64,000 bases of DNA from Eledone cirrhosa (taxonomy: Eukaryota), in NCBI GenBank assembly GCA_964016885.1, contig CAXHJY010001390.1, positions 62,001-126,000 of the forward strand, given 5' to 3'. This document shows, in pieces, positions 8,934 to 61,499 of this stretch. The translations under genes were made by a program, and so were the position numbers. Under the pieces are notes generated by a model, which worked only from the letters and a program-made list of their open reading frames with translations, did not search any database and was not told where the DNA came from. Each line of letters starts with the position of its first letter. Position 1 is the stretch's first letter.

Positions 8934-8935
8934 CA

Positions 8936-9961: not shown

Positions 9962-10027
<66 letters not shown>

Positions 10028-10269: not shown

Positions 10270-10460
10270 GTATATATGTATATATATATATATATGTATA
10301 TATTGGAATAAATGCTCTGAAATAGCGATATATATGTGAATATAGACATAGAATATTCGAAAATATTCTGTATGTTTATAATAAACATTTTGAAGACCTA
10401 ATCGCTATAGAATAGAATACGTCACGTATTACAATTAGATTCTCGATAAAAGCAAGGGAA

Positions 10461-10503
10461 GTAATCTACGCGTTTCATTCTTGTTAGAAATCTTCAGGAC
10501 TAC
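10461..10503 (-). ncRNA. Minimal type I hammerhead ribozyme
   Basis: Minus strand: gtagtc CTGAAGA tttct-aaca-agaat GAAAC-gc-GTA gattac. Confidence 0.88.
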
Positions 10504-10770
10504 ATATCCAGTGCTTTTATCGAGAATGACACAGCTAGAGACTTATAGAATACTTAGCTGTGTACAGGAACTGGTTTGAAAGAGCGGTTGCCGGTCCGGC
10601 AGAAATTAGAAATTGGAATAAATGCTCTGAAATAGCGATATATATGTGAATATAGACATAGAATATTCGAAAATATTCTGTATGTTTATAATAAACATTT
10701 TGAAGACCTAATCGCTATAGAATAGAATACGTCACGTATTACAATTAGATTCTCGATAAAAGCAAGGGAA

Positions 10771-10813
10771 GTAATCTACGCGTTTCATTCTTGTTAGAAA
10801 TCTTCAGGACTAC
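10771..10813 (-). ncRNA. Minimal type I hammerhead ribozyme (second monomer)
   Basis: Identical motif 310 nt away. Confidence 0.88.
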
Positions 10814-11140
10814 ATATCCAGTGCTTTTATCGAGAATGACACAGCTAGAGACTTATAGAATACTTAGCTGTGTACAGGAACTGGTTTGAAAGAGCGGTTG
10901 CCGGTCCGGCAGAAATTAGAAATTGGAATAAATGCTCTGAAATAGCGATATATATGTGAATATAGACATAGAATATTCGAAAATATTCTGTCAAGAATGA
11001 AACGCGTAGATTACTTCCCTTGCTTTTATCGAGAATCTAATTGTAATACGTGACGTATTCTATTCTATAGCGATTAGGTCTTCAAAATGTTTATTATAAA
11101 CATACAGAATATTTTCGAATATTCTATGTCTATATTCACA

Positions 11141-12808
<1,668 letters not shown>

Positions 12809-14439: not shown

Positions 14440-17400
14440 CAAACAAACAAATTAACAACACACCAAAACAATTAAAACCATCCACTCTCGCCTCTACATT
14501 TTTGCTTAACGCCCAAGGCATCAGCCCTTCCACCAATACTCAAAAATGGAAGATCAAATTCCTGGAGGACTGGATTGATGTCCATCCAAACCACATCCCT
14601 TTCTTCGTCCTCACTGAAACCCATCTCAGTAACCTCCACTTGGAAGCCGAGGTGAAAGTGAAAAATTTCAAAGCCATCCGTGCTGATCGCGCTGGCAGAA
14701 GAAAGGACGGAACTGCCATTTATGTCCATAATTCTTTCTCAACAGAGGCTATGAATATATTCACTAATGGATACTGTGAGGCAGTCACTGTATTCAGTCA
14801 AACCAACAACCTATTAGTAGTTGGGCTCTATAGGCCACCCCAAACGCCTGTACCATGCTTCAAGGAATGCCTCAACAGCATAAAGTGTTTCATCCAAGAG
14901 TGTCACCCTGACAACATCTTAATGATGGGGGACTTCAACCTCCCCGGAGTTGACTGGTCCACAAACAGCCTGCCACCAGGTTCTTCTGCCTCAACCTCTG
15001 ACAGGGAAGCTGTGGAATCGCTTCTTGACTTCATGGATGATTTCTTCCTATCCCAACTGGTGCTCGAACCAACGAGGTGCCACAAAAACGTCCTAGACTT
15101 AATTTTCAGCAATCACACTGACAATATCCACAATATTGCAGTGGAGAAAACTCTACTCTCTGATCATGACATGGTTCTCTGTGATCTGAGATTCCACCGT
15201 CCAATATACAAACCCAATGTCATCTCTCCTGTCCATCCGTTTGATACTATGGATTTCCACAATGCAAACTGGGAAGCGATCAGTCATGATCTTGCACATG
15301 TCGACTGGTCCTTCACGCACACTCATACACCCACTAACATCAAAAAGTCCTGGCAGACATTTGTGAACACTGTTACAAACATATGTGCTAAACACACCCC
15401 ATTAAGAACTATAAACAAATCTAAGAGCAGAATCCCTAGAAATAGAAAAACGCTCATCAGAAAAATTAAGAGAACGAACAAAAAAATCAACAAGCTGAAA
15501 TACTGTCAGCAGCAACACATCAACTTGACTGCCATTTCATCACTAGAGATTAAAAAACATAACCTCCAAAACAACATAATGTCCCTCATCAACAATCAGA
15601 GAAGAGCTGAAGAGGCCTGGGCCATTGAGAAGATCAAACTCAATCCCAAAGTGTTCTTTTCATTTGCAAAAAAACACAAAATCACTGGCTCTACTGTTGG
15701 CCCTCTAATTGATGAAAATGGCACTCTTCAAGACAATGCTAAAACCATGGGTGAGATACTGCAGAAACAATACTGCTCTGTTTTCAGCAATCCTGATATG
15801 GCCGATCTGGGCTGTATCGGCGATGTTACTCCCCATTACACCTTATCGGACATAACGTTTGGCGCCCCTGATGTCTTGGCGGCAATAAAGGAAATCAAGC
15901 ATAATTCAGCAGTAGGTCCCGATAGGTTCCCTGCTTGTGTCTTGAAGGCGTGTCAACACCAACTTGCATCTCCTCTTGCCAATCTGTGGCGGAACTCACT
16001 GGATGCTGGATATGTGCCAGAAAACCTTCTATCCCAGTCTGTTGTCCCAGTTTTCAAAAAGGGAAACAAATCCCTTGCCGTGAATTACCGTCCAATCTCA
16101 CTCACCTCTCATATCATTAAGGTATTTGAGAGAGTGGTGAGATCGCGAATGACCCACTTCCTTCAGAGTAACAATATGCTGAACTCCAACCAGCATGGAT
16201 TCCGTAATGGAAGGGATTGCCTGACGCAGCTACTGCATCACTTTGATGACATTTTGAGAGCCTTGGGAGAGGGTTCCAACACTGATGTTATCTACCTTGA
16301 TTTCAGCAAGGCCTTTGACAGGGTTGATCATAACATTCTACTGAGAAAGCTGTCCAATATTGGTGTCACTGGAAAGCTGCTGCAGTGGATCAAGAGCTTC
16401 CTGTCAAACAGAACCCAACATGTTGTAGTTGAGGGAGTCAAATCAAGCCCAGCCAAAGTCAGTAGTGGGGTCCCACAAGGCACTGTGTTGGGCCCACTTC
16501 TCTTCATCATCTATATTAATGACATCACTGACATCATCAAACACAGCAACATTAAAATTTTCGCTGATGATTCCAAGCTCCAAAAGGTCATCAATGGCGT
16601 GGATGACGGGATAAGCCTTCAGTCAGACCTACTGGCTGTTACCCAATGGGCGGAAAAGAACAACATGTTACTAAACCAAGACAAATTCGAACTGATCCAC
16701 TTTGGAAAAGAGGATACTCTGAAACTCCCGTACTCCCTTCCCTCCGGGGAAACTCTCGTGGCATCTAACAACATCAGAGACTTGGGAGTAACCGTGGACA
16801 GCAACATAAGCTGGACCACGCATATAAGCAGCAAAGTTGACATGGCCCGCAGAATGTGTTCCTGGATCCTCAGAACCTTCCAGTCGAGAGATTCCCGCAC
16901 CATTATCCTTCTCTTCTCTACTTTTGCCCGACCACACCTTGAATACTGTTGTCCACTGTGGTCTCCCCACATGAAACAAAGTATCATGAAACTTGAAGCT
17001 CCTCAAAGGGCAATCACGAAGAAGATAGATGGCATGTCAGACCTTGACTACTGGGGTCGATTAGAAAACCTGAAACTTTACTCACTCCAACGTCGCCGTG
17101 AGCGTTATATTATCTGCACGATGTGGAAAATGTTCCATCATCACTGCCCAAATGATGTTGGCATCGCCTTCAAGATACACCCAAGGCTTGGGCCCCATGC
17201 TATCCGTCCCATTCAAAAATCTAAATCGCAACTCATAACAACAATACGGCACAATTATTTCACCTCAATCGGCCCTGCTCTCTTCAACATCACACCAGGA
17301 CACGTCAAAACAGAAACTGACCACACAAAATTCAAGAAGTCTTTGGACAAATTCCTCCAAGTAATCCCGGACAAACCACCCACACCTGGATATGTCTCCG

Positions 17401-17447
17401 CAAACAGTAATTCTCTTCTCGAATGGGCCATGGTGCCCAAATCCTGA
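14427..17447 (+). CDS. LINE ORF2: apurinic-like endonuclease + reverse transcriptase (uninterrupted; no AUG at the start)
   Basis: LTETHL, GLYRPP, MGDFN, SDH; [47 protein letters not shown]. Confidence 0.95.
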
Positions 17448-17531
17448 ATTGAAAGACTTCGCCAGGTGGTGCTATTAAGTTAGACATGGCCTGGGCCAAT
17501 ACTGGCCAAAACATTTCAAAGTTATTCAAAG

Positions 17532-17652
<121 letters not shown>

Positions 17653-17686
17653 GTATATATATATATGTATATATATATATGTATAT

Positions 17687-17778
<92 letters not shown>

Positions 17779-17787
17779 GTATATATG

Positions 17788-17839
<52 letters not shown>

Positions 17840-17844
17840 TATAT

Positions 17845-20546
17845 AACTTTGAATAACTTTGAAATGTTTTGGCCAGTATTGGCCCAGGCCATGTCTAACT
17901 TAATAGCACCACCTGGCGAAGTCTTTCAATTCAGGATTTGGGCACCATGGCCCATTCGAGAAGAGAATTACTGTTTGCGGAGACATATCCGGGTGTGGGT
18001 GGTTTGTCCGGGATTACTTGGAGGAATTTGTCCAAAGACTTCTTGAATTTTGAGTGGTCAGTTTCTGTTTTGACGTGTCCTGGTGTGATGTTGAAGAGAG
18101 CAGGGCCGATTGAGGTGAAATAATTGTGCCGTATTGTTGTTATGAGTTGCGATTTAGATTTTTGAATGGGACGGATAGCACGGGGCCCAAGCCTTGGGTG
18201 TATCTTGAAGGCGATGCCAACATCATTTGGGCAGTGATGATGGAACATTTTCCACATCATGCAGATAATATAACGCTCAGGGCGACGTTGGAGTGAGTAA
18301 AGTTTCAGGTTTTCCAATCGATCCCAGTAGTCAAGGTCTGACATGCCATCTATCTTTTTCGTGATTGCCCTTTGAGGAGCTTCAAGTTTCATGATACTTT
18401 GTTTCGTGTGGGGAGACCACAGTGGACAACAGTATTCAAGGTGTGGTCGGGCGAAAGTAGAGAAGAGAAGGATAATGGTGCGGGAATCTCTCGACTGGAA
18501 GGTTCTGAGGATCCAGGAACACATTCTGCGGGCCATGTCAACTTTGCTGCCGATATGCGTGGTCCAGCTTATGTTGCTGTCCACGGTTACTCCCAAGTCT
18601 CTGATGTTGTTAGATGCCACGAGAGTTTCCCCGGAGGGAAGGGAGTACGGGAGTTTCAGAGCATCCTCTTTTCCAAAGTGGATCAGTTCGAATTTGTCCT
18701 CGTTCAGTAACATGTTGTTCTTTTCCGCCCATTGGGTAACAGCCAGTAGGTCTGACTGAAGGCTTATCCAGTCATCCACGCCATTGATGACCTTTTGGAG
18801 CTTGGAATCATCAGCGAAAATTTTAATGTTGCTCTGTTTGCTGATGTCAGTGATGTCATTAATATAGATGATGAAGAGAAGTGGGCCCAACACAGTGCCT
18901 TGTGGGACCCCACTACTGACTTTGGCTGGGCTTGATTTGACTCCCTCAACTACAACATGTTGGGTTCTGTTTGACAGGAAGCTCTTGATCCACTGCAGCA
19001 GCTTTCCAGTGACACCAATATTGGACAGCTTTCTCAGTAGAATGTTATGATCAACCCTGTCAAAGGCCTTGCTGAAATCAAGGTAGATAACATCAGTGTT
19101 GGAACCCTCTCCCAAGGCTCTCAAAATGTCATCAAAGTGATGCAGTAGCTGCGTCAGGCAATCCCTTCCATTACGGAATCCATGCTGGTTGGAGTTCAGC
19201 ATATTGTTACTCTGAAGGAAGTGGGTCATTCGCGATCTCACCACTCTCTCAAATACCTTAATGATATGAGAGGTGAGTGAGATTGGACGGTAATTCACGG
19301 CAAGGGATTTGTTTCCCTTTTTGAAAACTGGGACAACAGACTGGGATAGAAGGTTTTCTGGCACATATACAGCATCCAGTGAGTTCCGCCACAGATTGGC
19401 AAGAGGAGATGCAAGTTGGTGTTGACACGCCTTCAAGACACAAGCAGGGAACCTATCGGGACCTACTGCTGAATTATGCTTGATTTCCTTTATTGCCGCC
19501 AAGACATCAGGGGCGCCAAACGTTATGTCCGATAAGGTGTAATGGGGAGTAACATCGCCGATACAGCCCAGATCGGCCATATCAGGATTGCTGAAAACAG
19601 AGCAGTATTGTTTCTGCAATATCTCACCCATGGTTTTAGCATTGTCTTGAAGAGTGCCATTTTCATCAATTAGAGGGCCAACAGTAGAGCCAGTGATTTT
19701 GTGTTTTTTTGCAAATGAAAAGAACACTTTGGGATTGAGTTTGATCTTCTCAATGGCCCAGGCCTCTTCAGCTCTTCTCTGATTGTTGATGAGGGACATT
19801 ATGTTGTTTTGGAGGTTATGTTTTTTAATCTCTAGTGATGAAATGGCAGTCAAGTTGATGTGTTGCTGCTGACAGTATTTCAGCTTGTTGATTTTTTTGT
19901 TCGTTCTCTTAATTTTTCTGATGAGCGTTTTTCTATTTCTAGGGATTCTGCTCTTAGATTTGTTTATAGTTCTTAATGGGGTGTGTTTAGCACATATGTT
20001 TGTAACAGTGTCCACAAATGTCTGCCAGGACTTTTTGATGTTAGTGGGTGTATGAGTGTGCGTGAAGGACCAGTCGACATGTGCAAGATCATGACTGATC
20101 GCTTCCCAGTTTGCATTGTGGAAATCCATAGCGTCAAACGGATGGACAGGAGAGATGACATTGGGTTTGTATATTGGACGGTGGAATCTCAGATCACAGA
20201 GAACCATGTCATGATCAGAGAGTAGAGTTTTTTCCACTGCAATATTGTGGATATTGTCAGTGTGATTGCTGAAAATTAAGTCTAGGACGTTTTTGTGGCA
20301 CCTCGTTGGTTCGAGCACTAGTTGGGATAGGAAGAAATCATCCATGAAGTCAAGAAGTGATTCCACAGCTTCCCTGTCAGAGGTTGAGGCAGAAGAACCT
20401 GGTGGCAGGGTGTTTGTGGACCAGTCAACTCCGGGGAGGTTGAAGTCCCCCATCATTAAGATGTTGTCAGGGTGACACTCTTGGATGAAACACTTTATGC
20501 TGTTGAGGCATTCCTTGAAGCATGGTACAGGCGTTTGGGGTGGCCT
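17845..20546 (-). mobile_element. 5'-truncated LINE family A copy, tail-to-tail with the full-length copy
   Basis: Near-identical reverse complement of ~14830-17535; frame open 17931-~20545. Confidence 0.95.
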
Positions 20547-21157
<611 letters not shown>

Positions 21158-21196
21158 TGAAATATAAGAATCAAAGAACTGTTCAAAACATTATTG

Positions 21197-21243
21197 TGCT
21201 TACAGCTGTTTCCTCCAAACCGAGGTTTGGATTCTTCGGAGCA
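21197..21243 (-). ncRNA. Hammerhead ribozyme, CCGAAGA core variant (inverted arm)
   Basis: Minus strand: tgct CCGAAGA a tccaaacc-tc-ggtttgga g GAAAC-agct-GTA agca. Confidence 0.75.
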
Positions 21244-23347
21244 ATTTATTAACGCATGGACAGTTATATGACCTCCTTTTCAGCCGAGAGACATACCAAT
21301 ACATATTCAAGCATTGATACATATTCAAACATTGTGGGTCAACATTCATTACAGAATTTAGAGTGGCAGTACACACTTCGAGATTACATTTATATTAATA
21401 GGTACAATCAAAAATCAAAGATATAGGTTAAAGTACAACATGAAGATAAGTGGTTATATAGTGCAAATGTTATATGTGTGGCACGCATGTGTGTCTTGTT
21501 TATATAGTGTGGCAGAGAGATATGTGTGGTAGAGGCACTTAGGTAGGTAAATAAGAGTGTTAGGTTGGTAGATCTGGTGGCAAAGTCTTTATAAGATTGA
21601 TATAGTCTGTGTGTGGAGAAATATTATAAGCATTAAAGATAGTGCAAGCATTAAAAGTGTTATAAGTATTGGAGATGCACAGCGCAGGGATGTCAAGTAA
21701 TTCATGTACTTCGGCATTTTCATGGTCAAGGGAGTGTATATTTCGATTATATGCCTTTCACATAATCCACGATAATCCAGTTAGAGATCGTAGTCTGGTG
21801 TTCTTTAGTTCGATACAGGAGGTTGTTACGTTTCGAGAAACGCCATTGAATACCGGAAGTGTGTGTGTGGCTAATGGGAGTTAATGCATGCGGGGAGGTA
21901 ACTCTGGGGTTTCTATATCTAGCCATTAAAATGTGTCCCAATATAGACCCTAAATTCTATGGTGAGGTGCACCTTCCAAGAGAGACTTTTAAAGCATAAA
22001 GTGTACTAACTATAGAGTAGTTTAACTAAATTATGCTGAAGGTGATCATATTATTATTAAGGTGGATTAACCCATCTTAAGGTGCTACAAATGGAAATTA
22101 TAGATGATGAGCGAGGATTCTAAATTAATGATCTCTGTGGTTGTAGTCTGCTCATATGACCAGGCGCGGTGATTGCAGGATTGCTTCAGGACCCAATGAT
22201 CTCTGGTAAGATCTGGGTCATCGCTTGCTACATTGGATGTCGAAAGATAATCGTCCCCAGGCAGGCCAAAGGTCAATCCGCAGTCCTCGGGACCCCTCTC
22301 TGACCGTCAGATCATCCATATACGTACAACCCGCACGGCAGTTGCATTGCATTCACTCACTGCGCTCAGCAGCCCGGTCCTACTGGTCAACAGCGCTACT
22401 CGATTAAATCATTTTACATCTGTCTAAGGAAGGTGTTTCCTCTGCCCAACACCATCCAACCGATCAATTCATGCTCAAATTACCCTTAGACCGGTGTGGT
22501 GCCGTCCAAGTGGGTGGATGTTGTCACACCTGCCGTAGAGGTATAAATGGGTATTTTCCCTGCGAAGGGTTCCAGAGGGATGTCGTTGTTTGTGTTATAA
22601 TGGATCAGCTAGTGTTGGGTATGTAGTATAGGGTGTGTCTCTGGTGTTTGATGCTAGATGTGGTGTTAGGTTCCAGTCCGACATTGCTATATATAGGGCT
22701 TAACGTTTTGGAAGGAATGTCTGAGGCGGTGCTGGCAAGTTGCAAACACCTCAGATTTTTTGTTAAGTAGGTTACGGTTGGAGAAGATAATATTGTGTGT
22801 CTCTAGTATACAGAGATTACAGAATTTATTAGGTGGTTTGTACGAGGTCGCGCTGCCTATCACTTCCCATTTGAGTGTGTATGGTTTATTTTTAGATTTT
22901 AGATAGTGTATGTAGCTAGAAAGTGAGGTGGAGTTGGCTAGGCTGTGCTTTTTGAACGAGTGGATGTGCGAGTTATATCTGATTTTGAAGCAGTTAGAAG
23001 TGGAGCCTACATAAGTTTCTGAAGAGTTATTAGTCGTGACTGTGCATGAGTATATGACATCCTTGGTTAGGCATTTTTTATCTAAAGGGCAGGTTCTATT
23101 AGCTCTACAGTTACAATTATTCTGTGCGTTAGTTCGCTGGTTATAATGCAATGCGGAAGTCTGTGTGGTGGATATAGGGTTTTGGGTGTTCGGGTTGGCA
23201 ACCCTGGTGTTATTACTTATACTAGTGTTATTTCTATTGTTACTGCCGTTGCTATTGTTGCTTGCTACAGTGGTATTTAGAGGGTTTGCATCCCGTTGTG
23301 ATTTTGTTTGTTGGAAGTAAGAACTAATTTTACTATTATTGCTGCTA

Positions 23348-25751
23348 GGAATACATATGAGAAATTGCTGATCAACAGTGTAAATTCATTTATCAATAGA
23401 GTGAGATGGAGGACATTCCATTATGATAGAAACAAATCTAACAACTTGAATAATACTAACAATTTTGACTCCTTCGGCTTTAAAACCTTTAAAAGCCCCC
23501 CTCATAACACTCTACTTAACTCCTTTGAAAATGACCTAGTTAAACTAGTTAAGAACATTAAATACAATAAGCACCATATTAGAAGCAACACCTTCTTAAA
23601 CAAACTTAACACTTCTATTAGTGGATTCAAAACTAGTAATAAAATTATTGTACACGCAGATAAAACTAATAACATATACAGCCTAGATTATATTACTTAT
23701 AGAAAGTTTATATATAATGAACTACATAAAAGCTACAAAAAAACCACCTTGAAAAACTTAGAAGATATTAATGTAGAGGGTTATAATATAGTGTCTAAAC
23801 TAGGACTACAGAGGCATACACAACCTTTCACTCCGAACCCCCTAGATTCTCTCTGAAGGACCATAAGGAGAACTTCATCAGCAACCCCACGATAAGACTT
23901 ATCTGCCCTTCCAAGTCCGACATTGGTATTATCAGCAAGAAGATTTTGGATAAAATCATCCCACAAATTAAACACAAGATACACCTTAAACAATGGGGAA
24001 ATACGGGTGAAGTAATTGAATGGTTTAAGGATATCAAGAATAATAAGAACAAAAAATTTATTCAATTTGATATCAATTCATACTACACCTCTATTTCCCC
24101 TATCCTATTAAATAAGGCACTTATCATGGCCATGACCAATAGCGACCTGACTAGAGCCCAGGTTGATGTCATCCTTGCGGCCCGTAAAACCATAATCACC
24201 TTCGAGGACCAACTATGGACACGCAAGGATACGCACAACAACTTCGACATAACCATGGGATCTAGTGACTCGGCGCAGGTCACTGATTTGGTCGGCCTAT
24301 ACCTCCTCAATGAAATCCATAAAGACCTCCCTTACCTCAACGGAGGTTTGTACCGCGATGATGCACTTCTACTCATAGAATATAAAAAATTTAATATAGA
24401 AAGAACTAGAAAACAACTGCATAAGACATTCAAAAACTTTAACCTTAGTATCACCATGGACAAAAACACTAAAAATGTTAACTTCCTAGACGCCACACTA
24501 TACCTAGACTCAAAAATATATACACCTTTCCATAAGCCTAATGAGAAACTTATTTACGTAGATACCAAGTCTAATCACCCTAGATCAATATTAAACTCTA
24601 TCTCTAAGGGGGTGTCCAATAGAATCTCTAGTCTGTCCTATGACGCAAACATATTTAGCAAAAACTCACAATATTACAATCAAGCATTAGCTAGCTCCGG
24701 CCATAATATAGAAATTGAGTTCCTACCTAAGAAAACACATAGCTACAACATAATCTCGCACAACATGTCCATGAGGAAATCTAATAATAGGAATAGCAAC
24801 CACAAGTACACCAAAGCGGAGGGTGCCACAGGAAGTAACCATTACCATGGAAACTACTGTGAGGCCTTAGGAGGAAGCAACACACCAAACACTAAAAGCA
24901 AAAATAGAAGAAGAAATAATACATTTTTCAACCCTCCTTTCAACCTAAATGTCTCCACCAACATACCTAGGGCTTTCTTCTCACTACTAGATAAAAACTT
25001 CCCTCGAGGACACAAGTACCACAACCTCTTAAACAAAAACACCATTAAAATCTCATACTCTACGACGCCTAACTTAGCATACCACATAGCTAGCAGCAAT
25101 AATAGTAAAATTAGTTCTTACTTCCAACAAACAAAATCACAACGGGATGCAAACCCTCTAAATACCACTGTAGCAAGCAACAATAGCAACGGCAGTAACA
25201 ATAGAAATAACACTAGTATAAGTAATAACACCAGGGTTGCCAACCCGAACACCCAAAATCCTATATCCACCACACAGACTTCCGCATTGCATTATAACCA
25301 GCGAACTAACGCACAGAATAATTGTAACTGTAGAGCTAATAGAACCTGCCCTTTAGATAAAAAATGCCTAACCAAGGATGTCATATACTCATGCACAGTC
25401 ACGACTAATAACTCTTCAGAAACTTATGTAGGCTCCACTTCTAACTGCTTCAAAATCAGATATAACTCGCACATCCACTCGTTCAAAAAGCACAGCCTAG
25501 CCAACTCCACCTCACTTTCTAGCTACATACACTATCTAAAATCTAAAAATAAACCATACACACTCAAATGGGAAGTGATAGGCAGCGCGACCTCGTACAA
25601 ACCACCTAATAAATTCTGTAATCTCTGTATACTAGAGACACACAATATTATCTTCTCCAACCGTAACCTACTTAACAAAAAATCTGAGGTGTTTGCAACT
25701 TGCCAGCACCGCCTCAGACATTCCTTCCAAAACTTTAAGCCCTATATATAG
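23348..25751 (+). pseudogene. Naiad RT-GIY-YIG ORF, slightly 5'-truncated, one frameshift near 23840
   Basis: FINRVRWR, FIQFDINSYY, MGSSDS, LYRDDA, CNC-x5-CPL-x3-C, VIYSC..YVGST, CNLC..CQH. Confidence 0.9.
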
Positions 25752-27194
25752 CAATGTCGGACTGGAACCTAACACCACATCTAGCATCAAACACCAGAGA
25801 CACACCCTATACTACATACCCAACACTAGCTGATCCATTATAACACAAACAACGACATCCCTCTGGAACCCTTCGCAGGGAAAATACCCATTTATACCTC
25901 TACGGCAGGTGTGACAACATCCACCCACTTGGACGGCACCACATCGCTCTAAGGGTAATTTGAGCATGAATTGATCGGTTGGATGGTGTTGGGCAGAGGA
26001 AACACCTTCCTTAGACAGATGTAAAATGATTTAATCGAGTAGCGCTGTTGACCAGTAGGACCGGGCTGCTGAGCGCAGTGAGTGAATGCAATGCAACTGC
26101 CGTGCGGGTTGTACGTATATGGATGATCTGACGGTCAGAGAGGGGTCCCGAGGACTGCGGATTGACCTTTGGCCTGCCTGGGGACGATTATCTTTCGACA
26201 TCCAATGTAGCAAGCGATGACCCAGATCTTACCAGAGATCATTGGGTCCTGAAGCAATCCTGCAATCACCGCGCCTGGTCATATGAGCAGACTACAACCA
26301 CAGAGATCATTAATTTAGAATCCTCGCTCATCATCTATAATTTCCATTTGTAGCACCTTAAGATGGGTTAATCCACCTTAATAATAATATGATCACCTTC
26401 AGCATAATTTAGTTAAACTACTCTATAGTTAGTACACTTTATGCTTTAAAAGTCTCTCTTGGAAGGTGCACCTCACCATAGAATTTAGGGTCTATATTGG
26501 GACACATTTTAATGGCTAGATATAGAAACCCCAGAGTTACCTCCCCGCATGCATTAACTCCCATTAGCCACACACACACTTCCGGTATTCAATGGCGTTT
26601 CTCGAAACGTAACAACCTCCTGTATCGAACTAAAGAACACCAGACTACGATCTCTAACTGGATTGTCGTGGATTATGTGAAAGGCATATAATCGAAATAT
26701 ACACTCCCTTGACCATGAAAATGCCGAAGTACATGAATTACTTGACATCCCTGCGCTGTGCATCTCCAATACTTATAACACTTTTAATGCTTGCACTATC
26801 TTTAATGCTTATAATATTTCTCCACACACAGACTATATCAATCTTATAAAGACTTTGCCACCAGATCTACCAACCTAACACTCTTATTTACCTACCTAAG
26901 TGCCTCTACCACACATATCTCTCTGCCACACTATATAAACAAGACACACATGCGTGCCACACATATAACATTTGCACTATATAACCACTTATCTTCATGT
27001 TGTACTTTAACCTATATCTTTGATTTTTGATTGTACCTATTAATATAAATGTAATCTCGAAGTGTGTACTGCCACTCTAAATTCTGTAATGAATGTTGAC
27101 CCACAATGTTTGAATATGTATCAATGCTTGAATATGTATTGGTATGTCTCTCGGCTGAAAAGGAGGTCATATAACTGTCCATGCGTTAATAAAT

Positions 27195-27241
27195 TGCCCC
27201 GAAGAATCCAAACCTCGGTTTGGAGGAAACAGCTGTAAGCA
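27195..27241 (+). ncRNA. Hammerhead ribozyme, CCGAAGA core variant (main copy)
   Basis: Same motif with one stem I mismatch (tgcc). Confidence 0.7.
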
Positions 27242-27445
27242 CAATAATGTTTTGAACAGTTCTTTGATTCTTATATTTCATATAACTGCTCTGTAAATCA
27301 TCTGATGTTTTTACATTGAGCTACTTAACTTACTGGTAATAAGGTAGTAATACATTACTGCCTACTCCTATTTAGGGTGTGTGTAAAATACTTACAACTG
27401 CTTAAGGTTTTGTGTTTACATAACCATAAATAGTATAACTAATAC

Positions 27446-30240
<2,795 letters not shown>

Positions 30241-38797: not shown

Positions 38798-40081
<1,284 letters not shown>

Positions 40082-40180
40082 AAGTAATTCCATCGGAAAA
40101 GTCCAGGAAAAAAGAGTGCTCTATGTATGCAACAGAGCTTAATTATTATTATTATGTAATAAACAACATAAGGCAATTAT

Positions 40181-40238
40181 TCCATTTACCAGTGGTTTCT
40201 TAAAAGCAAAAGGTTTTGCTTTCAATCCTCAGAATGAA
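40181..40238 (-). ncRNA. Type I hammerhead ribozyme (Naiad family 3, distal)
   Basis: Minus strand: ttcatt CTGAGGA ttgaaagcaaaa-cc-ttttgcttttaa GAAAC-cactg-GTA aatgga. Confidence 0.88.
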
Positions 40239-40438
40239 AAATCCTGGTTTGTTTATTGAATCTGGATTCTAAAAACAAAAATGCAATCTATATTAAAGTG
40301 AGGCTGGAAAAGGGAGAAGGAAAGGAAAAATAAAATAAAACTACACATGCAAACACACACATAAAAACACAAAAGCATACTAACACACACATACATATAT
40401 ACACATACATATAAATGTACGCATACACATATACACAT

Positions 40439-40486
<48 letters not shown>

Positions 40487-40631
40487 AGCGTACACCTACA
40501 CACACATACACATATATACACACATATACACATACATATAGTCATACATACACACACACACACACACATATATACACACATACACACACACACACATACA
40601 CACACACATATATATACACATGTACATATCC

Positions 40632-40729
<98 letters not shown>

Positions 40730-41115
40730 GTGTGTACAAGCATACACATACACACACACATATATATATACACACACATATACATACATTCACAGAAACA
40801 TACAACGTACATACATACACATACATGAATGCACTCCACTACATATTAACACACGCAAATAAATAGAAGAAAAAAATATATAAATATATATTAACAACAT
40901 TTTTGACAGCGATACATGCCCCAGCTAACAGGACAGACACGCGTGGTAAGTAATACACACATAAGCACATATACATACGTTCGAAATAGTAAACACATAC
41001 ACACACTCTCACACATAAATATACATATACAAATACATAAACACGTACATACACATACATACACAAACACGTACACGTATACAATATAAACACACACATA
41101 TATATGTAATTATAT

Positions 41116-41168
<53 letters not shown>

Positions 41169-41640
41169 CATACATATATATATATATACATACATACGAA
41201 AATATAAAAATATAAACGCACACACACATATAAATACGTAAACACACATATACATACATAGCTAAACAATTATACACATGCAAATACGTATATATCAAAA
41301 GAACGCACAACCAAATACAAACACACACACATATACACACACACACACACCCACACACAAACCCACGCATACATAAAAATGAATAAATACACACGCACAC
41401 ATATACATACATACACATACATATACATATATACATATATACATATACATACATATATATACACATATATATATAAATATACATATATACACACATACAC
41501 GTACACATACACACATGCATACACATACACACACACATATACATGTGTGTATGTGTAAAGCTCAGTATTAGATAAGACAAATGAACCTTACACAAACGTA
41601 TATATAGTAGTAAAGTAATAAAGCCATACAAGGCAATTAA

Positions 41641-41698
41641 TCCATTCACCAGAGGTTTCTTAAAGGCAAAAAAAGTTTCCTTCAATCTTCAGAATGAA
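41641..41698 (-). ncRNA. Second, probably non-cleaving hammerhead paralogue (GUG triplet)
   Basis: ttcatt CTGAAGA ... GAAAC-ctctg-GTG aatgga. Confidence 0.65.
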
Positions 41699-42109
41699 AA
41701 AAAGGCCTGGTTTATCCACATATACATACATATACACACACAAATATACAAATATATACACACATACAGACACGCATACACACATATATATATATACATA
41801 TACATATATATACAGACATATATACATATATATATATATATACATACACATACATATACATACATACATACACATACATATACATACACAAACATATACG
41901 TACACATATACATATATACACACAAAAATACATACACATACACATAGGTATGTGAAGGGCAAAACAAAAAGAATATATGGGGGGGGCTAAGAGGAGGTAA
42001 AAATATAAGGGGAGGTGAGGGAGAAAAAAAAAATTTAAATATACAAGAGTACAGAAGGTAGAAGCAGCAAAATAAAAACCGTAGCAAAAGTAAAGAGCAG
42101 AGAAGGAGT

Positions 42110-43789
42110 TCAAGGCGGTTGATTTATCGTAGGAGTGTCAATCCAGTTACAGATCAGATGCGATTTCAGATGAGGACAGCATCTGAAGATCTCAGTCTTA
42201 GAGTTAAGGCAAGCGGAAGTGTCTCTCAAGTTTAGCAAAATCCTATACTTTTCTGTGGTACACAAAGAACAATTCTTTGTGCCCCTTTGGTACTCCCTCG
42301 AATGGTCTAATATAGACCAATCAATAGAGTACGGGATATTACTATCCTTGAGATCCCATACCTTACTTGCGAGGGCCGTTGATGTTCGTTTATCTGAGTG
42401 TTTAAAAGAAGCGACATGTGAGTAAAATCTGGTTTTAAACCTGTCCTGGGTCATACCGACATATCGCTCGCTTCTGGCTGGCTGGTTGTTGATAACTGGC
42501 GTTATTTTAGCCTCATAAACGACAGATTTTGTGTTACATTTACCCTGCAATGGGCATTCATCCGGCTTCCTGCAACTGCATCCTGGATTTATCCTCGTAC
42601 GGTTTGAACTGGTGATTTTGGACTTCATGGATGGGCAACAAGAGTAGCTGATCTTAACTACATTCCTATTAAAAATCTTATAATATCTATGAATAGGAGG
42701 AAAATGTTTGTCTAATAGTTCAAGGAATTTCCTTCCTACATTAGTTTTGACATTTAGAGAGAAGGGGGGTGTGAACCAAATAATCTTCCTTTTCCTGTTA
42801 TTATGGTTAGTTTTAGGGGGGGGGAGTAGGTAAATAAGAAATATTTTCTGTAAAACCGCTGTTCTTAAGGGCTTTATTATAATAAGGGGCGGCTTTATTA
42901 AAAATGTCTATAGACGAAGATAAGGTAGAAATCCTACGGCTAATGTTAGGAATAAGATTATTAAAAACTATAGGGGGATGGCAAGACTCTTTGTGTATAT
43001 ACCTAAGATTTTCATTAGGTTTATAATAGGGTTTAAAAGAGGCAGTAAGTAGATCAAGATTAATATCAAGAAAGTTAGCATTAGTAAGGTTCGTATCTAT
43101 AGTAATTTTAAGGTTAAGATTAGCAAAAGTACTAATTAAATCTTTACGGAATTTATCAAGATTATGGCCATTGGTGGTATGAGAAACTGCTAATCCGTCA
43201 TCACGGTATAAACCGATATTATGGGACGGAAATTTCTCTTTGAGTGTGTGGAGAATGAATAATCCTACTAAGTCGCACACATCCGCACTGTCATAAGAAC
43301 CCATTGCAACATCGAAAGAGTTTTCAGGGTTTGACTTTTTAACCCAAATATTATCATTAGTAAAAAGTAAAGTTTTTCTACCATGAAAGATAATGTCCTC
43401 TTCTAATTTGGAGATATTAATGAAGGGTCTTGCAAAATCTAAGGCTTTAGTTAATAAGGAAACAGTAATAGAAGGGTAAAAATCGACAATATCAAACTGG
43501 GTAAATCTAAACTTATTTTTACCTTGTATATTATTGAACCAAGAAATAACAGAGGAAGTATTTAGCCACTGTGAAAGGACAGTGTTAGTTCTAATTTGGA
43601 GAATTATTTTTCTTAAGATTTTCTTACTAGCAAGGCCAACCTCGGATTTAGCCGGGTTAATCAGTCTACAACTAGGTCGATTAGTAAAGTCCAATTTATG
43701 GTCTTTAAGGGTAATATATGCTTTACGCTTAGCTAAGCTTTCAATCCGGTTATCTATTTGTAAAGAACTAGCTAGTTCTTTAGCTTCTT
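42110..43789 (-). pseudogene. Naiad RT-GIY-YIG, truncated and frameshifted near 42760-42820
   Basis: ITLKDHK, FTQFDIVDFYP, MGSYDS, LYRDDG, CSC-x5-CPL-x3-C, VVYEA...YVGMT, CSLC...CCPH. Confidence 0.9.
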
Positions 43790-44681
43790 CCAGGATGCAG
43801 TTGCAGGAAGCCGGATGAATGCCCATTGCAGGGTAAATGTAACACAAAATCTGTCGTTTATGAGGCTAAAATAACGCCTGTTATCAACAACCAGCCAGCC
43901 AGAAGCGAGCGATATGTCGGTATGACCCAGGACAGGTTTAAAACCAGATTTTACTCACATGTCGCTTCTTTTAAACACTCAGATAAACGAACATCAACGG
44001 CCCTCGCAAGTAAGGTATGGGATCTCAAGGATAGTAATATCCCGTACTCTATTGATTGGTCTATATTAGACCATTCGAGGGAGTACCAAAGGGGCACAAA
44101 GAATTGTTCTTTGTGTACCACAGAAAAGTATAGGATTTTGCTAAACTTGAGAGACACTTCCGCTTGCCTTAACTCTAAGACTGAGATCTTCAGATGCTGT
44201 CCTCATCTGAAATCGCATCTGATCTGTAACTGGATTGACACTCCTACGATAAATCAACCGCCTTGAACTCCTTCTCTGCTCTTTACTTTTGCTACGGTTT
44301 TTATTTTGCTGCTTCTACCTTCTGTACTCTTGTATATTTAAAATTTTTTTTTTTTTCTCCCTCACCTCCCCTTATATTTTTACCTCCTCTTAGCCCCCCC
44401 CCCATATATTCTTTTTGTTTTGCTCTTCACATACCTATGTGTATGTGTATGTATTTTTGTGTGTGTATATGTATATGTGTACGTATATGTTTGTGTATGT
44501 ATATGTATGTGTATGTATGTATGTATATGTATGTGTATGTATATATATATATATGTATATATGTCTGTATATATATGTATATGTATATATATATATGTGT
44601 GTATGCGTGTCTGTATGTGTGTATATATTTGTATATTTGTGTGTGTATATGTATGTATATGTGGATAAACCAGGCCTTTTT

Positions 44682-44740
44682 TTCATTCTGAAGATTGAAG
44701 GAAACTATTTTTTGCTTTTAAGAAACCTCTGGTGAATGGA
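44682..44740 (+). ncRNA. GUG-triplet hammerhead paralogue in the inverted arm
   Basis: Mirror of 41641-41698. Confidence 0.65.
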
Positions 44741-45210
44741 TTAATTGCCTTGTATGGCTTTATTACTTTACTACTATATATACGTTTGTGTAAGGTTCAT
44801 TTGTCTTATCTAATACTGAGCTTTACACATACACACATGTATATGTGTGTGTGTATGTGTATGCATGTGTGTATGTGTACGTGTATGTGTGTATATATGT
44901 ATATTTATATATATATGTGTATATATATGTATGTATATTTATATATGTATATATGTATATGTATGTGTATGTATGTATATGTGTGCGTATGTATTTATTT
45001 ATTTTTATGTATGCGTGGGTTTGTGTGTGGGTGTGTGTGTGTGTGTATATGTGTGTGTGTTTGTATTTGGTTGTGCGTTCTTTTGATATATACGTATTTG
45101 CATGTGTATAATTGTTTAGCTATGTATGTATATGTGTGTTTACGTATTTATATGTGTGTGTGCGTTTATATTTTTATATTTTCGTATGTATGTATATATA
45201 TATATGTATG

Positions 45211-45267
<57 letters not shown>

Positions 45268-45654
45268 ATATAATTACATATACATGTGTGTGTTTATATT
45301 GTATACGTGTACGTGTTTGTGTATGTATGTGTATGTACGTGTTTATGTATTTGTATATGTATATTTATGTGTGAGAGTGTGTGTATGTGTTTACTATTTC
45401 GAACGTATGTATATGTGCTTATGTGTGTATTACTTACCACGCGTGTCTGTCCTGTTAGCTGGGGCATGTATCGCTGTCAAAAATTTTGTTAATATATATT
45501 TATATATTTTTTTCTTATATTTATTTGCGTGTGTTAATATGTAGTGGAGTGCATTCATGTATGTGTATGTATGTACGTTGTATGTTTGTGTGAATGTATG
45601 TATATGTGTGTGTATATATATGTGTGCCTGTATGTGTATGCTTGTACACACACA

Positions 45655-45775
<121 letters not shown>

Positions 45776-45814
45776 GGATATGTACATGTGTATATATATG
45801 TGTGTGTGTATGTG

Positions 45815-45853
<39 letters not shown>

Positions 45854-45916
45854 ATGTATGACTATATGTATGTGTATATGTGTGTATATATGTGTATGTG
45901 TGTGTAGGTGTACGCT

Positions 45917-45978
<62 letters not shown>

Positions 45979-46178
45979 ATGTGTATATGTGTATGCGTAC
46001 ATTTATATGTATGTGTATATATGTATGTGTGTGTTAGTATGCTTTTGTGTTTTTTTGTGTGTGTTTGCATGTGTAGTTTTATTTTATTTTTCCTTTCCTT
46101 CTCCCTTTTCCAGCCTCACTTTCATATAGATTGCATTTTTGTTTTTAGAATCCATATTCAATAAACAAACCAGGATTT

Positions 46179-46236
46179 TTCATTCTGAGGATTGAAAGCA
46201 AAACCTTTTGCTTTTAAGAAACCACTGGTAAATGGA
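46179..46236 (+). ncRNA. Type I hammerhead ribozyme in the inverted arm
   Basis: Mirror of 40181-40238. Confidence 0.88.
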
Positions 46237-46272
46237 ATAATTGCCTTATGTTGTTTATTACATAATAATAAT

Positions 46273-46944
<672 letters not shown>

Positions 46945-48283
46945 CAACCAGCATGGATTCCGTAATGGAAGGGATTGCCTGACGCAACTACTGCATCACT
47001 TTGATGACATTTTGAGAGCCTTGGGAGAGGGTTCCAACACTGATGTTATCTACCTTGATTTCAGCAAGGCCTTTGACAGGGTTGATCATAACATTCTACT
47101 GAGAAAGCTGTCCAATATTGGTGTCACTGGAAAGCTGCTGCAGTGGATCAAGAGCTTCCTGTCAAACAGAACCCAACATGTTGTAGTTGAGGGAGTCAAA
47201 TCAAGCCCAGCCAAAGTCAGTAGTGGAGTCCCACAAGGCACTGTGTTGGGCCCACTTCTCTTCATCATCTCTATTAATGACATCACTGACATCATCAAAC
47301 ACAGCAACATTAAAATTTTCGCTGATGATTCCAAGCTCCAAAAGGTCATCAATGGCGTGGATGACGGGATAAGCCTTCAGTCAGACCTACTGGCTGTTAC
47401 CCAATGGGCAGAAAAGAACAACATGTTACTGAACGAAGACAAATTCGAACTGATCCACTTTGGAAAAGAGGATGCTCTGAAACTCCCGTACTCCCTTCCC
47501 TCCGGGGAAACTCTCGTGGCATCTAACAACATCAGAGACTTGGGAGTAACCGTGGACAGCAACATAAGCTGGACCACGCATATAAGCAGCAAAGTTGACA
47601 TGGCCCGCAGAATGTGTTCCTGGATCCTCAGAACCTTCCAGTCGAGAGATTCCCGCACCATTATCCTTCTCTTCTCTACTTTCGCCCGACCACACCTTGA
47701 ATACTGTTGTCCACTGTGGTCTCCCCACACGAAACAAAGTATCATGAAACTTGAAGCTCCTCAAAGGGCAATCACGAAAAAGATAGATGGCATGTCAGAC
47801 CTTGACTACTGGGGTCGATTGGAAAACCTGAAACTTTACTCACTCCAACGTCGCCGTGAGCGTTATATTATCTGCATGATGTGGAAAATGTTCCATCATC
47901 ACTGCCCAAATGATGTTGGCATCGCCTTCAAGATACACCCAAGGCTTGGGCCCCGTGCTATCCGTCCCATTCAAAAATCTAAATCGCAACTCATAACAAC
48001 AATACGGCACAATTATTTCACCTCAATCGGCCCTGCTCTCTTCAACATCACACCAGGACACGTCAAAACAGAAACTGACCACACAAAATTCAAGAAGTCT
48101 TTGGACAAATTCCTCCAAGTAATCCCGGACAAACCACCCACACCCGGATATGTCTCCGCAAACAGTAATTCTCTTCTCGAATGGGCCATGGTGCCCAAAT
48201 CCTGAATTGAAAGACTTCGCCAGGTGGTGCTATTAAGTTAGACATGGCCTGGGCCAATACTGGCCAAAACATTTCAAAGTTAT
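46945..48283 (+). mobile_element. 5'-truncated LINE family A copy (RT to 3' end)
   Basis: Near-identical to ~16187-17525; frame open to the stop at 48205. Confidence 0.95.
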
Positions 48284-49400
<1,117 letters not shown>

Positions 49401-55923: not shown

Positions 55924-58731
55924 GTACTGTTGACACATTCAAATTCAGTCTGTGACACACTGATAATACATATGAAGCAACTACAGACAGTAATATGTGT
56001 CACATATCGGCCGCCCGATGCCCCCATCATGAGTGTAAATTTGAGGATAGCCTAAGTAGGATAGAAGAGGTCCTTGACAAACTGGACCAGGGTCTCAACA
56101 TTCTACTGCTGGGAGACTTCAACCTATCAAAGGTCAAATGGCCTGAGGGCCAGGCCCTCCCTGGAATGACGTCAATAGAACAGAGACAGACGGAAACCCT
56201 GCTGGCCCTCACCCACAAGCTGTTCATGGAGCAAGCAATACTCCTCCCAACAAGGGGCGAAAATGTCCTGGACCTCTGTTTTACAAACAACGAAGTGCTC
56301 ATCCACAATGTAAAGGTGACACCAACAATTCTCTCGGATCATAACTTAGTAGAGCTAATGATATGTGGTCCAAGAGAACCAACAGAGACAAAACCACCAA
56401 GAAGCTCCAGGACGCTATCCAGCCTTAACTTATACAAGGCTAACTGGAAAAAGATTAAGAGAGAAATCCGGAAGCAAACATGGAGTGAAAACACCGCCAC
56501 ACAAGACACTAACACACAATTTCAACACTTCATGACAACGATACACACTATATGCAAAAAGTGTGTCCCGGAGAAAAAGGCAAACAGACACAAAAATCTT
56601 ATTCCCAGAGATAGGAAAATCCTTATGAGATGAGGAAGCAAACTCTCAAACCAGTTGAATAGTCAACAAAACAAAAACAAAAGGAATCCTGCTTGAAATG
56701 TGCATTATTTGGCACCGAGATTGCACTCAAGCTTTCCCATGAGAATGAGAGGGCAAAGAAAGAGAACAGGGCCATAGAAAACATTAAAACAATACTAAGG
56801 CCTTATTTAAGTTTGCAAAAGAAACTGCCTCAGTACACTGCAAGATTGGGCCACTCTTCCATACGGACGGTTCATTAACCGAAAACCCCCAAGAGATATG
56901 TGAAATACTGAACGAACAGTACAAAAGTGTGTTCACATGTCCACTGAGGCACATGCAAATAACGAAGCCAGGGGAGTTCTTTGATGCCACAACACTACAT
57001 GAAGAAATGGCAACCATCAACCACATAGACATAACGGAGGAGGATGGGGTGTACGCCATTGATGAAATTCGAACAGACTCGGCTGCTGGACCTGATGGAT
57101 TCCCAACAGTTCTCTTAAAAAATGTAAGCGGGCCTTAGCAACTCCACTGAATATGCTCTTCAGAAGCTCCTTGGCTAGCGGTGTACTACTCAGGGAGCTG
57201 AAAGAAGGCACAATATGCCCTATCATAAAGGAGGTAGCAGAGCGGAGGCCAAAAACTATAGGCCAGTCTCTCTGACGTCGCATATCAGTAAGGTCATGGA
57301 GCGAGTCGTCAGAAAGAAACTGATCACTTTCCTCGAGGAAAATGACCGCCTGACTAGCACGCAACATGGCTTCCGCCCAGGAAGAAGCTGCCTTACACAG
57401 CTGCTACATCACTACGACTGGGTACTGAGACAACTACTAGACAGCTCATATGTGGACGTGATATATCTTGACTTTGCGATGCCTTTGATAAGGTCGACCA
57501 CGGAATGATATGTCACAAACTACATGGACTCGGCATAACTGGAAAAGTAGGTGAGTGGCTGCATGACTTCCTAAAGGACAGAAGCCAGTCAGTCGCAGCA
57601 AATAGGGCCCTCTCAAAGGAAACACCAATAACAAGTGGGGTGCCCCAGGGGACAGTCCTGGGACCACTACTGTTTTTGGTGGTTCTCTCAGACATGCCCT
57701 CTGTAGTACATACAACAATATCCCTCACTAGCTATGCTGATGACACTAAGGTAGCACAGGCAATCAAAAACCCCGCTGACGCTGCCCTTTTACAGCAGGA
57801 TCTGGATGCCATATACAAATGGGCGGAAGAAAACAACATGCAGTTTAATGCTGGCAAATTCCAAGCCCTACAATACAAACCTCCAAACAAACCTGCAAAC
57901 ACAAATATAGTACAACACAACTACACAGGACCAGGAGGGACCGATATCCCCGTTTCAAAATCGATACGAGACCTGGGCATAGACAGGAGCGATGATGCAT
58001 CTTTTTCTTCACCCATCATGAAAGTGGCGACATGTGCAGACGACTCGCTGGCTGGACCTTGAGGACTTTCCGGACAAGAGATCGAGACACCATGTTGACA
58101 CTATGGAGGACATTTGTCCTAAGCCGCCTGGACTACTGCTCCCAGTTGTGGTCACCCCATAGTGTCAAACTAGCCACGGAGCTTGAGGCAATCCAGCGAA
58201 GCTACACCAAGAGGATTGCCACGATGAAGGAGACAAGCTACTGGGAGAGGCTAAAGGAACTGAACCTCTACTCCTTGGAACAAAGACGGGAGAGATACGC
58301 ATTGATCTACATGTGGAAAATCCTGGAGGGACTAGCACCAAACTTCGGCATTGGGAGCTGGACCAACTGTCGAACAGGACGTCACTGTGTGGTGCCAAAG
58401 GTCCCGTCTTCCACATCTAGAATAAGGAACAGGTATTGCAATAGCTTGGGATTCAAGGGCCCTCAACTCTTCAACAAGCTGCCGAGGGATCTGAGAGATC
58501 TGCATGACGTGGAGGTGGATGTCTTCAAGAAACATCTCGACACCTTGTTATCCAGGATCCCGGATGAGCCCACAGCAAGACACGAGGGAAACCTAAGGGC
58601 AGCAGCAACAAACTCCCTCTTACACCAGTGGCCAACCTATACAGGCTGGAGATAAAATGTGTAGCAAGAAGGGCGGTGCCCCAGCATGGCCTCAGCCAGA
58701 TGGCTGAAACAGGTAAAAGAGTAAAAGAGTA
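55924..58731 (+). mobile_element. 5'-truncated, decayed CR1/L2-group LINE family B
   Basis: APE and RT motifs ([33 protein letters not shown]) across several frameshifts; 3' end GGGCGGTGCCCCAGCATGGCC...GTAAAAGAGTAAAAGAGTA then (TA)n. Confidence 0.92.
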
Positions 58732-58852
58732 TATGTATATATATATATATATATACATATATATATACATGTACATATATATGCATATACATATATATAT
58801 ATATATATGTGTGTGTTCATATATATATATATATACATGCACATATATATGC

Positions 58853-58885
<33 letters not shown>

Positions 58886-58955
58886 AACAAGGTTTAGCAA
58901 ATAATGAAAAAGTTTCAAAATAAATTTTAAAAAATTGACTTTACCTACTATAGTT

Positions 58956-59055
58956 ACCTTTACCGATCGGTTTCGAATCCCCCCCCCCCCCCCCCCCAAA
59001 AAAAAACCGGAGACCATACGGCCTTCGTTGCAAAGAAAGATTCTCGTCAGAAGGT
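58956..59055 (-). ncRNA. Type I hammerhead ribozyme with large loop II
   Basis: Minus strand: acctt CTGACGA gaatc...gattc GAAACC-gatc-GGTA aaggt. Confidence 0.85.
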
Positions 59056-59454
59056 TCTTTTCATTCAAAGAATATAAAATTCCTGAATTTAAATTACAGA
59101 CTAGCGCTATCAAAACTGTTCCCGGGATGAGAGTGGATGATGTAGAAACAGGTTTATCAAGGGCCGAAGCAAAGATAGAGGCAGAAGGAGGTAGGTCAAA
59201 CCAGCCACAGCTGTCGCTAGCAGCAGTCAGAACGACCAAATTTGTTCTCAACATTAGAGGAGGTAGTAGTAATAGGATATGTGTTCCTTCCCGCACAAGG
59301 CGCTAAGGTACGCATGTATTGTCCAACCAAATGCCAGTGTGGTTCAATGGCGGGTTAATAAATTAACGAGCCAGAACAAATATAAACAAGGTTTAGCAAA
59401 TAATGAAAGAGTTTCAAAATAAATTTTAAAAAATTGACTTTACCTACTATAGTT

Positions 59455-59538
59455 ACCTTTACCGATCGGTTTCGAATCCCAAAAATAAAACGGAGACCAT
59501 ACGGCCTTCGTTGCAAAGAAAGATTCTCGTCAGAAGAT
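59455..59538 (-). ncRNA. Type I hammerhead ribozyme (second monomer)
   Basis: Same motif with one stem I change. Confidence 0.8.
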
Positions 59539-59810
59539 TCTTTTCAATACATGCGTACCTTAGCGCCTTGTGCGGGAAGGAACACATATCCTATTACTAC
59601 TACCTCCTCTAATGTTGAGAACAAATTTGGTCATTCTGACTGCTGCTAGCGATAGCTGTGGCTAGTTTGACCTACCTCCTTCTGCCTCTATCTTTGCTTC
59701 GGCCCTTGATAAACCTGTTTCTACATCATCCACTCTCATCCCGGGAACAGTTTTGATAGCGCTAGTCTGTAATTTAAATTCAGGAATTTTATATTCTTTG
59801 AATGAAAAGA

Positions 59811-59894
59811 ACCTTCTGACGAGAATCTTTCTTTGCAACGAAGGCCGTATGGTCTCCGTTTTATTTTTGGGATTTGAAACCGATCGGTAAAGGT
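59811..59894 (+). ncRNA. Type I hammerhead ribozyme (inverted arm)
   Basis: acctt CTGACGA gaatc...gattt GAAACC-gatc-GGTA aaggt. Confidence 0.85.
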
Positions 59895-60100
59895 AACTAT
59901 AGTAGGTAAAGTCAATTTTTTAAAATTTATTTTGAAACTTTTTCATTATTTGCTAAACCTTGTTTATATTTGTTCTGGCTCGTTAATTTATTAACCCGCC
60001 ATTGAACCACACTGGCATTTGGTTGGACAATACATGCGTACCTTAGCGCCTTGTGCGGGAAGGAACACATATCCTATTACTATATATATATATATATATA

Positions 60101-60998: not shown

Positions 60999-61499
<501 letters not shown>

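Follow-up and report, generated by a model that had tools for sequence, protein, structure and literature searches.

A head-to-head insertion of a non-coding 483-nt hammerhead unit points to probable retrozyme mobilisation by a Penelope-like element

In a 64-kb stretch of DNA (the window, whose coordinates are used throughout), we found one insertion of a high-copy, non-coding 483-nt unit that carries a predicted type I hammerhead ribozyme and lies as two head-to-head arms between (TA)n tracts. We consider it likely that this non-LTR retrozyme was mobilised in trans by the RT/endonuclease of a (TA)n-targeting Penelope-like element (PLE), which possibly belonged to the Hydra clade. The layout of the DNA does not establish a circular RNA template, and DNA alone cannot separate the forms that the template may have taken.

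The unit spans 59545-60027. Its first 55 nt (59545-59599) recur at 60028-60082 with 100% identity, which bears out the 483-nt period that a preliminary description of this DNA had placed at 59545 to 60028. The same description had estimated the minus arm at ~1.3 and the plus arm at ~1.1 monomers, and we measured 1.35 and 1.11 units. The plus arm is 538 nt long (unit positions 1-483, then 1-55), and the minus arm, which reads from 59546 down to 58881, has 666 nt, of which a homopolymer expansion contributes 16 nt; the remaining 650 nt correspond to unit positions 259-483 followed by 1-425. Counted from the predicted ribozyme cut, the minus arm comprises 80 nt beyond the cut site, one complete unit from cut to cut, and a further 87 nt. 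At the center the arms overlap by 2 nt (CA), and their inner starts are ordinary 5′ truncations with these two shared bases at the join. Both outer ends adjoin (TA)n, with an overlap of 5 nt for the minus arm and 2 nt for the plus arm, and the plus arm extends beyond the outer end of the minus arm by 113 nt as judged by alignment, or by 116 nt as judged by TA-array offset. Outside the homopolymer tract the arms differ by six substitutions, two of which are CpG-type and each of which is private among copies; the arms are thus not the identical copies of an assembly fold-back. Between the two laps of the minus arm there are two substitutions in about 167 nt, similar to the difference between the arms. 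The 16-nt G expansion in one ribozyme copy (Table 1) may be due to slippage or assembly error. Unit GC is 38.5%, and no further match to the unit was found within the 64-kb window. When folded as a circle, the unit reached -103.8 kcal/mol with 59% of its bases paired (z -1.4 versus 60 shuffles).

Table 1. Features of the fold-back and of the PLE families in the window
Feature	Position	Strand	Remarks
Left (TA)n target tract	58730-58885		directly beyond 3′ end of a LINE; from sequence
Minus arm	58881-59546	-	one complete cut-to-cut unit between two hammerheads
Cut site to recurrent family 3′ end, 80 nt	58881-58960	-	last 5 nt overlap (TA)n target; same end in other copies
Type I hammerhead copy 3	58956-59055	-	core 59050; predicted cut after 58961
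G run of 19 (3 in other two copies)	58979-58997	-	16-nt expansion beside stem II
Type I hammerhead copy 2	59455-59538	-	core 59533; predicted cut after 59460; one C-to-U change in stem I
Head-to-head junction of two 5′-truncated arms	59545-59546		2-nt microhomology
Plus arm	59545-60082	+	one 483-nt lap + 55 nt
Type I hammerhead copy 1	59811-59894	+	core 59816; predicted cut 59889/59890
Copy 1, stem I	59811-59815 with 59890-59894	+	
Copy 1, core	59816-59822	+	
Copy 1, stem II	59823-59829 with 59869-59875	+	
Copy 1, GAAA	59876-59879	+	
Copy 1, helix III	59879-59888	+	palindromic
One-sided extension (tail), 113 nt	59970-60082	+	past family 3′ end; last 2 nt overlap (TA)n target
Right (TA)n target tract	60081-60100		from sequence
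PLE family with Hydra-clade motifs	2259-4913		
PLE family with Hydra-clade motifs	20883-27564		
PLE family with Hydra-clade motifs	39434-46944		

Three type I hammerhead cores were located, one in the plus arm and two in the minus arm. Stem I comprises 5 bp and stem II 7 bp, and loop II proper has 39 nt with an inner hairpin. Since the span between the two core boxes is 53 nt (69 nt in the G-expanded copy), the ~45-60 nt previously given for loop II was roughly right. The self-complementary stem III noted at the same time proved to be a helix III decamer that is a perfect palindrome, with a dimer duplex of -16.6 kcal/mol. Upon free folding of the plus-arm copy, stems I and II formed, and the full active fold of the three copies was 3.1-5.6 kcal/mol above the free ensemble. 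The plus arm has T at 59875 where related copies have C, turning the core-closing G-C pair into G-U. In the reads of sequencing run X11, described below, C was found at this position in 419 of 476. The rarity of T suggests that the core-closing pair of the plus-arm copy has likely decayed. The Rfam hammerhead models gave no match at the gathering score, nor at E up to 10, and our ribozyme prediction rests on the core motif and its pairing. Family variants in X11 carry one extra base inside loop III at 59882-59883 (18 and 60 reads) and keep the stem. A variant at 59952 would convert a U-G pair to U-A in a hairpin that follows the cut. Extending from the cut site almost to the family end, this post-cut hairpin (z -1.7) was a candidate for a general start signal. 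We rejected that role since z was 0.2, -1.5, 0.7, and -0.05 for four similar segments, short or long, of two other families.

The unit contains two long open frames on opposite strands, and we treated it as non-coding from its sequence. Pfam returned no families for either frame, in searches that also missed the window's real Hydra-type ORFs. One frame had no homologue among 205 longer candidate proteins, and for the other phmmer returned only two giant proteins, of which the one checked was a weak bacterial Ig-repeat match. Among 25 variants in a contig from organism B (see below), 11 at most were synonymous in any frame. Given this low synonymous share and no Pfam or homologue support, we rejected the frames as coding remnants. 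The X11 reads also contain a 1-nt loss at 59718 (101 reads) and 1-nt gains at 59750-59751 (43 and 49 reads). These indels are about 32 nt apart and could compensate one another; no other coding signal was found. Between successive ribozymes there is no ORF, and hence none of the RT plus GIY-YIG coding sequence by which an autonomous PLE is recognized. The sequence-level traits used to recognize non-LTR retrozymes are present, namely a hammerhead in each unit, consecutive ribozymes arranged head-to-tail, no coding capacity, and a GC content below 50%, with the exception of a notably stable circle (z -1.4). The earlier assignment to a retrozyme-type unit is upheld by the type I cores, by the two ribozymes exactly one unit apart, and by a 483-nt cycle that closes on itself.

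A run search listed 13 sequencing runs, nine of which contained part of the unit and none of which is recorded as RNA, a result that does not bear on expression; four of the 13 were aligned to the unit at 85% likeness. The aligned material comprised 865 contigs of X1 and 2175 raw RAD reads of X11, a reduced-representation library (both organism A), three contigs of X4 (organism B), and one of X6 (organism C); runs X7-X9, with small word shares, were left out of the alignment. With a share of the unit's words no higher than 0.52, the aligned runs may not come from the window's own species. We found 163 reads, from 23 starts, that span 60027 to 59545, and one 513-nt X4 contig corresponding to the 483-nt cycle plus 30 nt. 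The joint from 60027 to 59545 was rejected as proof of tandem arrays on its own since the point lies inside the unit. The unit is a multi-copy family in at least two organisms. At five of five checked positions where many or all aligned copies differ, the two arms share one letter, which fits a single source for both arms and may instead reflect species differences. Exact ribozyme patterns had no matches in metagenome contigs and none in viral contigs.

One end of the family is recurrent. Position 59969, equivalent to the outer stop of the minus arm, is a 3′ end in X11, X1, and X4. There, 106 raw X11 reads (agreement 0.84), which may derive from few loci in this RAD library, and four X1 contigs run into (TA)n, while contigs 6 and 7 (X1) and 10 (X4) stop at the same point with 6-8 other letters each. 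It was the sole TA-joined end among the 14 loose ends listed of 162, and ends such as the TATA-like site at 59794, beside an AATT site, would be hidden in the X11 reads. Peaks of read beginnings and ends were rejected as element ends; seven of seven among those listed fall on AATT or CATG sites, a placement that fits restriction ends of the RAD library. Raw depth drops from 242 at 59597 to 126 at 59608, near the plus-arm end at unit position 55. The drop is compatible with a second start site; among the 14 loose ends listed of 162, none lies there. In addition, upstream of 59884 a diverged ribozyme region is joined in 79 reads and one X4 contig. Sister elements therefore share the post-cut segment (59884-59969), and the joined element is possibly a sister family or the end of an autonomous partner. 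In X1, the summed contig depth over 59885-60003 exceeded that over 59545-59782 several-fold to tenfold.

Three sets of PLE ORFs occur in the window, two with RxRW, DKT, and CxCX5C and the third with CxCX5C. Such motifs, together with (TA)n insertion and hammerheads, are described for the Hydra clade (PMC8557442), and by these motifs the window's PLEs would belong to it. We examined five head-to-head fold-backs, which were the 483-nt locus, the hammerhead unit at 10302-11147, two coding Hydra-type pairs (20883-27564 and 39434-46944), and the solo pLTR pair at 61141 to about 61490. In each of the five, one arm stops at (TA)n and the other continues, with TA-array offset differences of 116, 28, 69, 163, and 97 nt in the same order. 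As the ends are unequal in coding and non-coding insertions alike, this layout is the local norm for PLE-type insertions. The preliminary description had taken the different arm ends as a sign of free permutation. With one end recurrent and unequal ends generic to such insertions, that reading was not supported, and the argument from permutation to a circle is weakened.

Other repeats in the window share some of these features. The fold-back at 10302-11147 is built of a non-coding 310-nt unit with minus-strand hammerhead cores at 10807 and 10497, head-to-head in (TA)n, and its ends differ by about 28 nt, near the classic tail length. At 8909-10145, inside a LINE ORF, a 520-nt unit with hammerhead cores at 9261 and 9781 is repeated in tandem, with a (TA)n tract within each period. 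The small head-to-head pair of pLTR ends at 61141-61490 is of the same family as the ribozyme at 1230, which sits downstream of a Hydra-type ORF; helix III of its minus-arm ribozyme is altered, and one arm is about 97 nt longer. Hydra-type inverted pairs in the window have one-sided extensions of 69-163 nt compared with the published 30-40 nt, and our scans found no hammerhead in the pair at 20883-27564. At 14829-20549 a LINE is present twice, tail-to-tail around (TA)n and with 98.5% identity over 5.7 kb, either as a true palindrome or through an assembly artefact; a third partial copy lies at 46945-48602. Between the unit and the coding PLEs of the window there was no blastn match, and the best tblastx E was 0.2, so sequence comparison within the window points to no partner PLE.

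The metazoan non-LTR retrozymes described in PMC7229834 are likewise non-coding and low in GC, carry a type I hammerhead once per period, show tandem junctions, reach high copy numbers, and share their genome with PLEs. At 483 nt the unit is above the 150-450 range given there and within the 51-972 range of a preprint (10.64898/2026.07.22.740005), in which retrozyme units are argued to derive from PLE pLTRs and one of nine predicted Xenopus dimers is reported to have cleaved. Circles have been demonstrated for coral, mussel, and axolotl retrozymes; for the 483-nt unit a circular RNA would be a prediction from DNA. With its 5-bp stem I, 7-bp stem II, and long loop II, the ribozyme is nearer to PLE variants than to the canonical retrozyme form. 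As in the PLE hammerheads of PMC4209133, helix I is short, helix II is long, and helix III is palindromic and suited to dimers; unlike those variants, it has no bulged base before stem II and its 39-nt loop II contains an inner hairpin. Plant LTR retrozymes have a type III ribozyme and paired LTRs, whereas we found a type I ribozyme and, as direct repeats, partial laps of one unit. Copies longer than one unit from circular templates were already proposed in 2014 and 2020, and a PLE origin in 2026. The main texts of PMC7229834 and of the preprint do not describe inverted arms or tails, and we found no description of fold-back retrozyme insertions with tails in the openly readable main-text literature.

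Insertions of Hydra-clade PLEs are reported to contain partial tandems, a head-to-head inverted 5′-truncated copy, a one-sided 3′ tail of 30-40 nt, a (TA)n target, and a hammerhead near the 3′ end (PMC8557442; PMC3846280). Of the PLE footprint, the locus has a partial tandem, an inverted 5′-truncated head-to-head copy, a recurrent 3′ end past the ribozyme, and (TA)n flanks, a target found for both Hydra and Naiad elements. The locus differs from Hydra-clade PLEs in that the unit has no RT/endonuclease ORF and in that the extension is 113 nt long as opposed to the published 30-40 nt; fixed recurrence was seen for one of its two ends. A second comparison is with the anole Poseidon element PAc (PMC11167929), which by its published coordinates starts about 85-92 nt past the ribozyme cut compared with 80 nt here. 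In vitro, the PAc protein is reported to cut and extend both DNA strands, with two internal start sites bounding the genomic tail, to need no ribozyme cleavage, and to have uncut RNA as its dominant substrate. PAc is autonomous and of another clade, and the ends here are 113 nt apart. In addition, the anole enzyme needed no target homology, whereas both outer ends of the locus share 2-5 nt with (TA)n, and this counts against our preferred explanation.

We propose that a PLE protein would bind a transcript longer than one unit and that both strands of the (TA)n tract would be nicked. The nicks would then prime copying inside the template, at +80 from the ribozyme cut (the family site) and at +193, 113 nt farther on. 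Copying would pass intact ribozyme junctions and end early, after 650 nt and 538 nt, and the two 5′-truncated copies would be joined head-to-head via two shared bases. Antisense self-priming, which has been proposed as a route to head-to-head repeats (PMC3846280), may also have produced the fold-back. Because the minus arm spans the cut site twice, the template would have been an uncut multimer, a circle, or a cut monomer with jumps. We give the uncut linear multimer a somewhat better than even chance and favor it over the other two; a ligated circle appears rather unlikely, and a cut monomer with jumps quite unlikely. Since the laps differ about as much as the arms do and the substitutions are private, circle and multimer are both compatible with the sequence. 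The two internal starts and the preference for uncut RNA of the PLE enzyme suggest, in turn, that a circle is not required. The preliminary description had attributed the arms to reverse transcription of circular or multimeric RNA, and what remains of this is copying across intact or rejoined cut sites, for which a PLE enzyme and uncut RNA would do without a circle. In one specific form of the circular template, a Hydra-clade PLE enzyme acting as a dimer would copy a 483-nt RNA circle, which itself encodes no protein, through the ligation junction, starting at two defined internal sites that lie 113 nt apart, with one start on each strand of the nicked (TA)n; we hold this combination to be unlikely.

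Three other accounts were weighed against mobilisation by a PLE enzyme. The arms could be freely permuted products of rolling reverse transcription on a ligated 483-nt circle, primed wherever (TA)n pairs with a few bases. In its favor, each arm is longer than one unit and the minus arm spans the cut site twice; the two differences in about 167 nt between laps are compatible with one template and later drift, and circles have been demonstrated for coral, mussel, and axolotl retrozymes while circular PLE templates were proposed in 2014. However, one outer end (59969) recurs across the family, the window's coding PLEs show unequal ends too, and the fold of the circle is not clearly more stable than its shuffles. 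Fixed linear ends shared by all copies had been named beforehand as evidence against this account, and we found them in part, as one recurrent end among the aligned copies. We regard free permutation as improbable. A circle with fixed start sites is possible and is counted within our best explanation.

The unit might also be the pLTR or 3′ part of a coding PLE, with the locus made up of two short, truncated copies of it, a possibility already raised in the preliminary description. The layout of the locus is like that of the solo pLTR pair at 61141-61490, X1 depth is higher on the post-cut side, and the diverged ribozyme region joined upstream of 59884 leaves room for a related element that could code. 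On the other hand, the distance between two ribozymes is exactly one unit and contains no ORF, closure of the cycle is seen in 163 reads and one contig, and no branch into coding sequence was recognizable among the 14 loose ends listed of 162. No PLE protein homologue was found either, in searches where Pfam also missed real Hydra-type ORFs. With no coding capacity and a cycle that closes at 483 nt, the unit is more than a pLTR attached to an ORF, and we consider this origin highly improbable; that the unit originated by deletion from a PLE is likely and is compatible with the preferred PLE-driven insertion. An assembly or amplification artefact, or a DNA-level satellite rearrangement, could be suspected since the window is unusually rich in inverted pairs, including the 5.7-kb LINE pair at 98.5% identity, and since the G run of 19 may be a sequencing error. 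Yet the arms differ by six substitutions with two of CpG type, one arm stops at the family's recurrent end, and (TA)n lies on both sides of the insertion, leaving an artefact the slimmest chance of the three.

The link between animal retrozymes and PLEs has so far been argued from shared ribozymes, co-occurrence, and pLTR similarity. To this the locus adds a footprint, consisting of a recurrent internal 3′ end, a one-sided tail, head-to-head arms, and a (TA)n target, that is common to coding Hydra-type elements within the same 64 kb. Our result supports the current model of retrozyme mobility and does not alter it. The family is small in unit size and abundant, and offers a cheap test system for distinguishing a circle from an uncut multimer as template. 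If the circular reading were true, the locus would be direct genomic evidence that animal retrozyme circles serve as transposition templates, and it would provide a minimal substrate for studying how the inverted ends and tails of PLEs arise.
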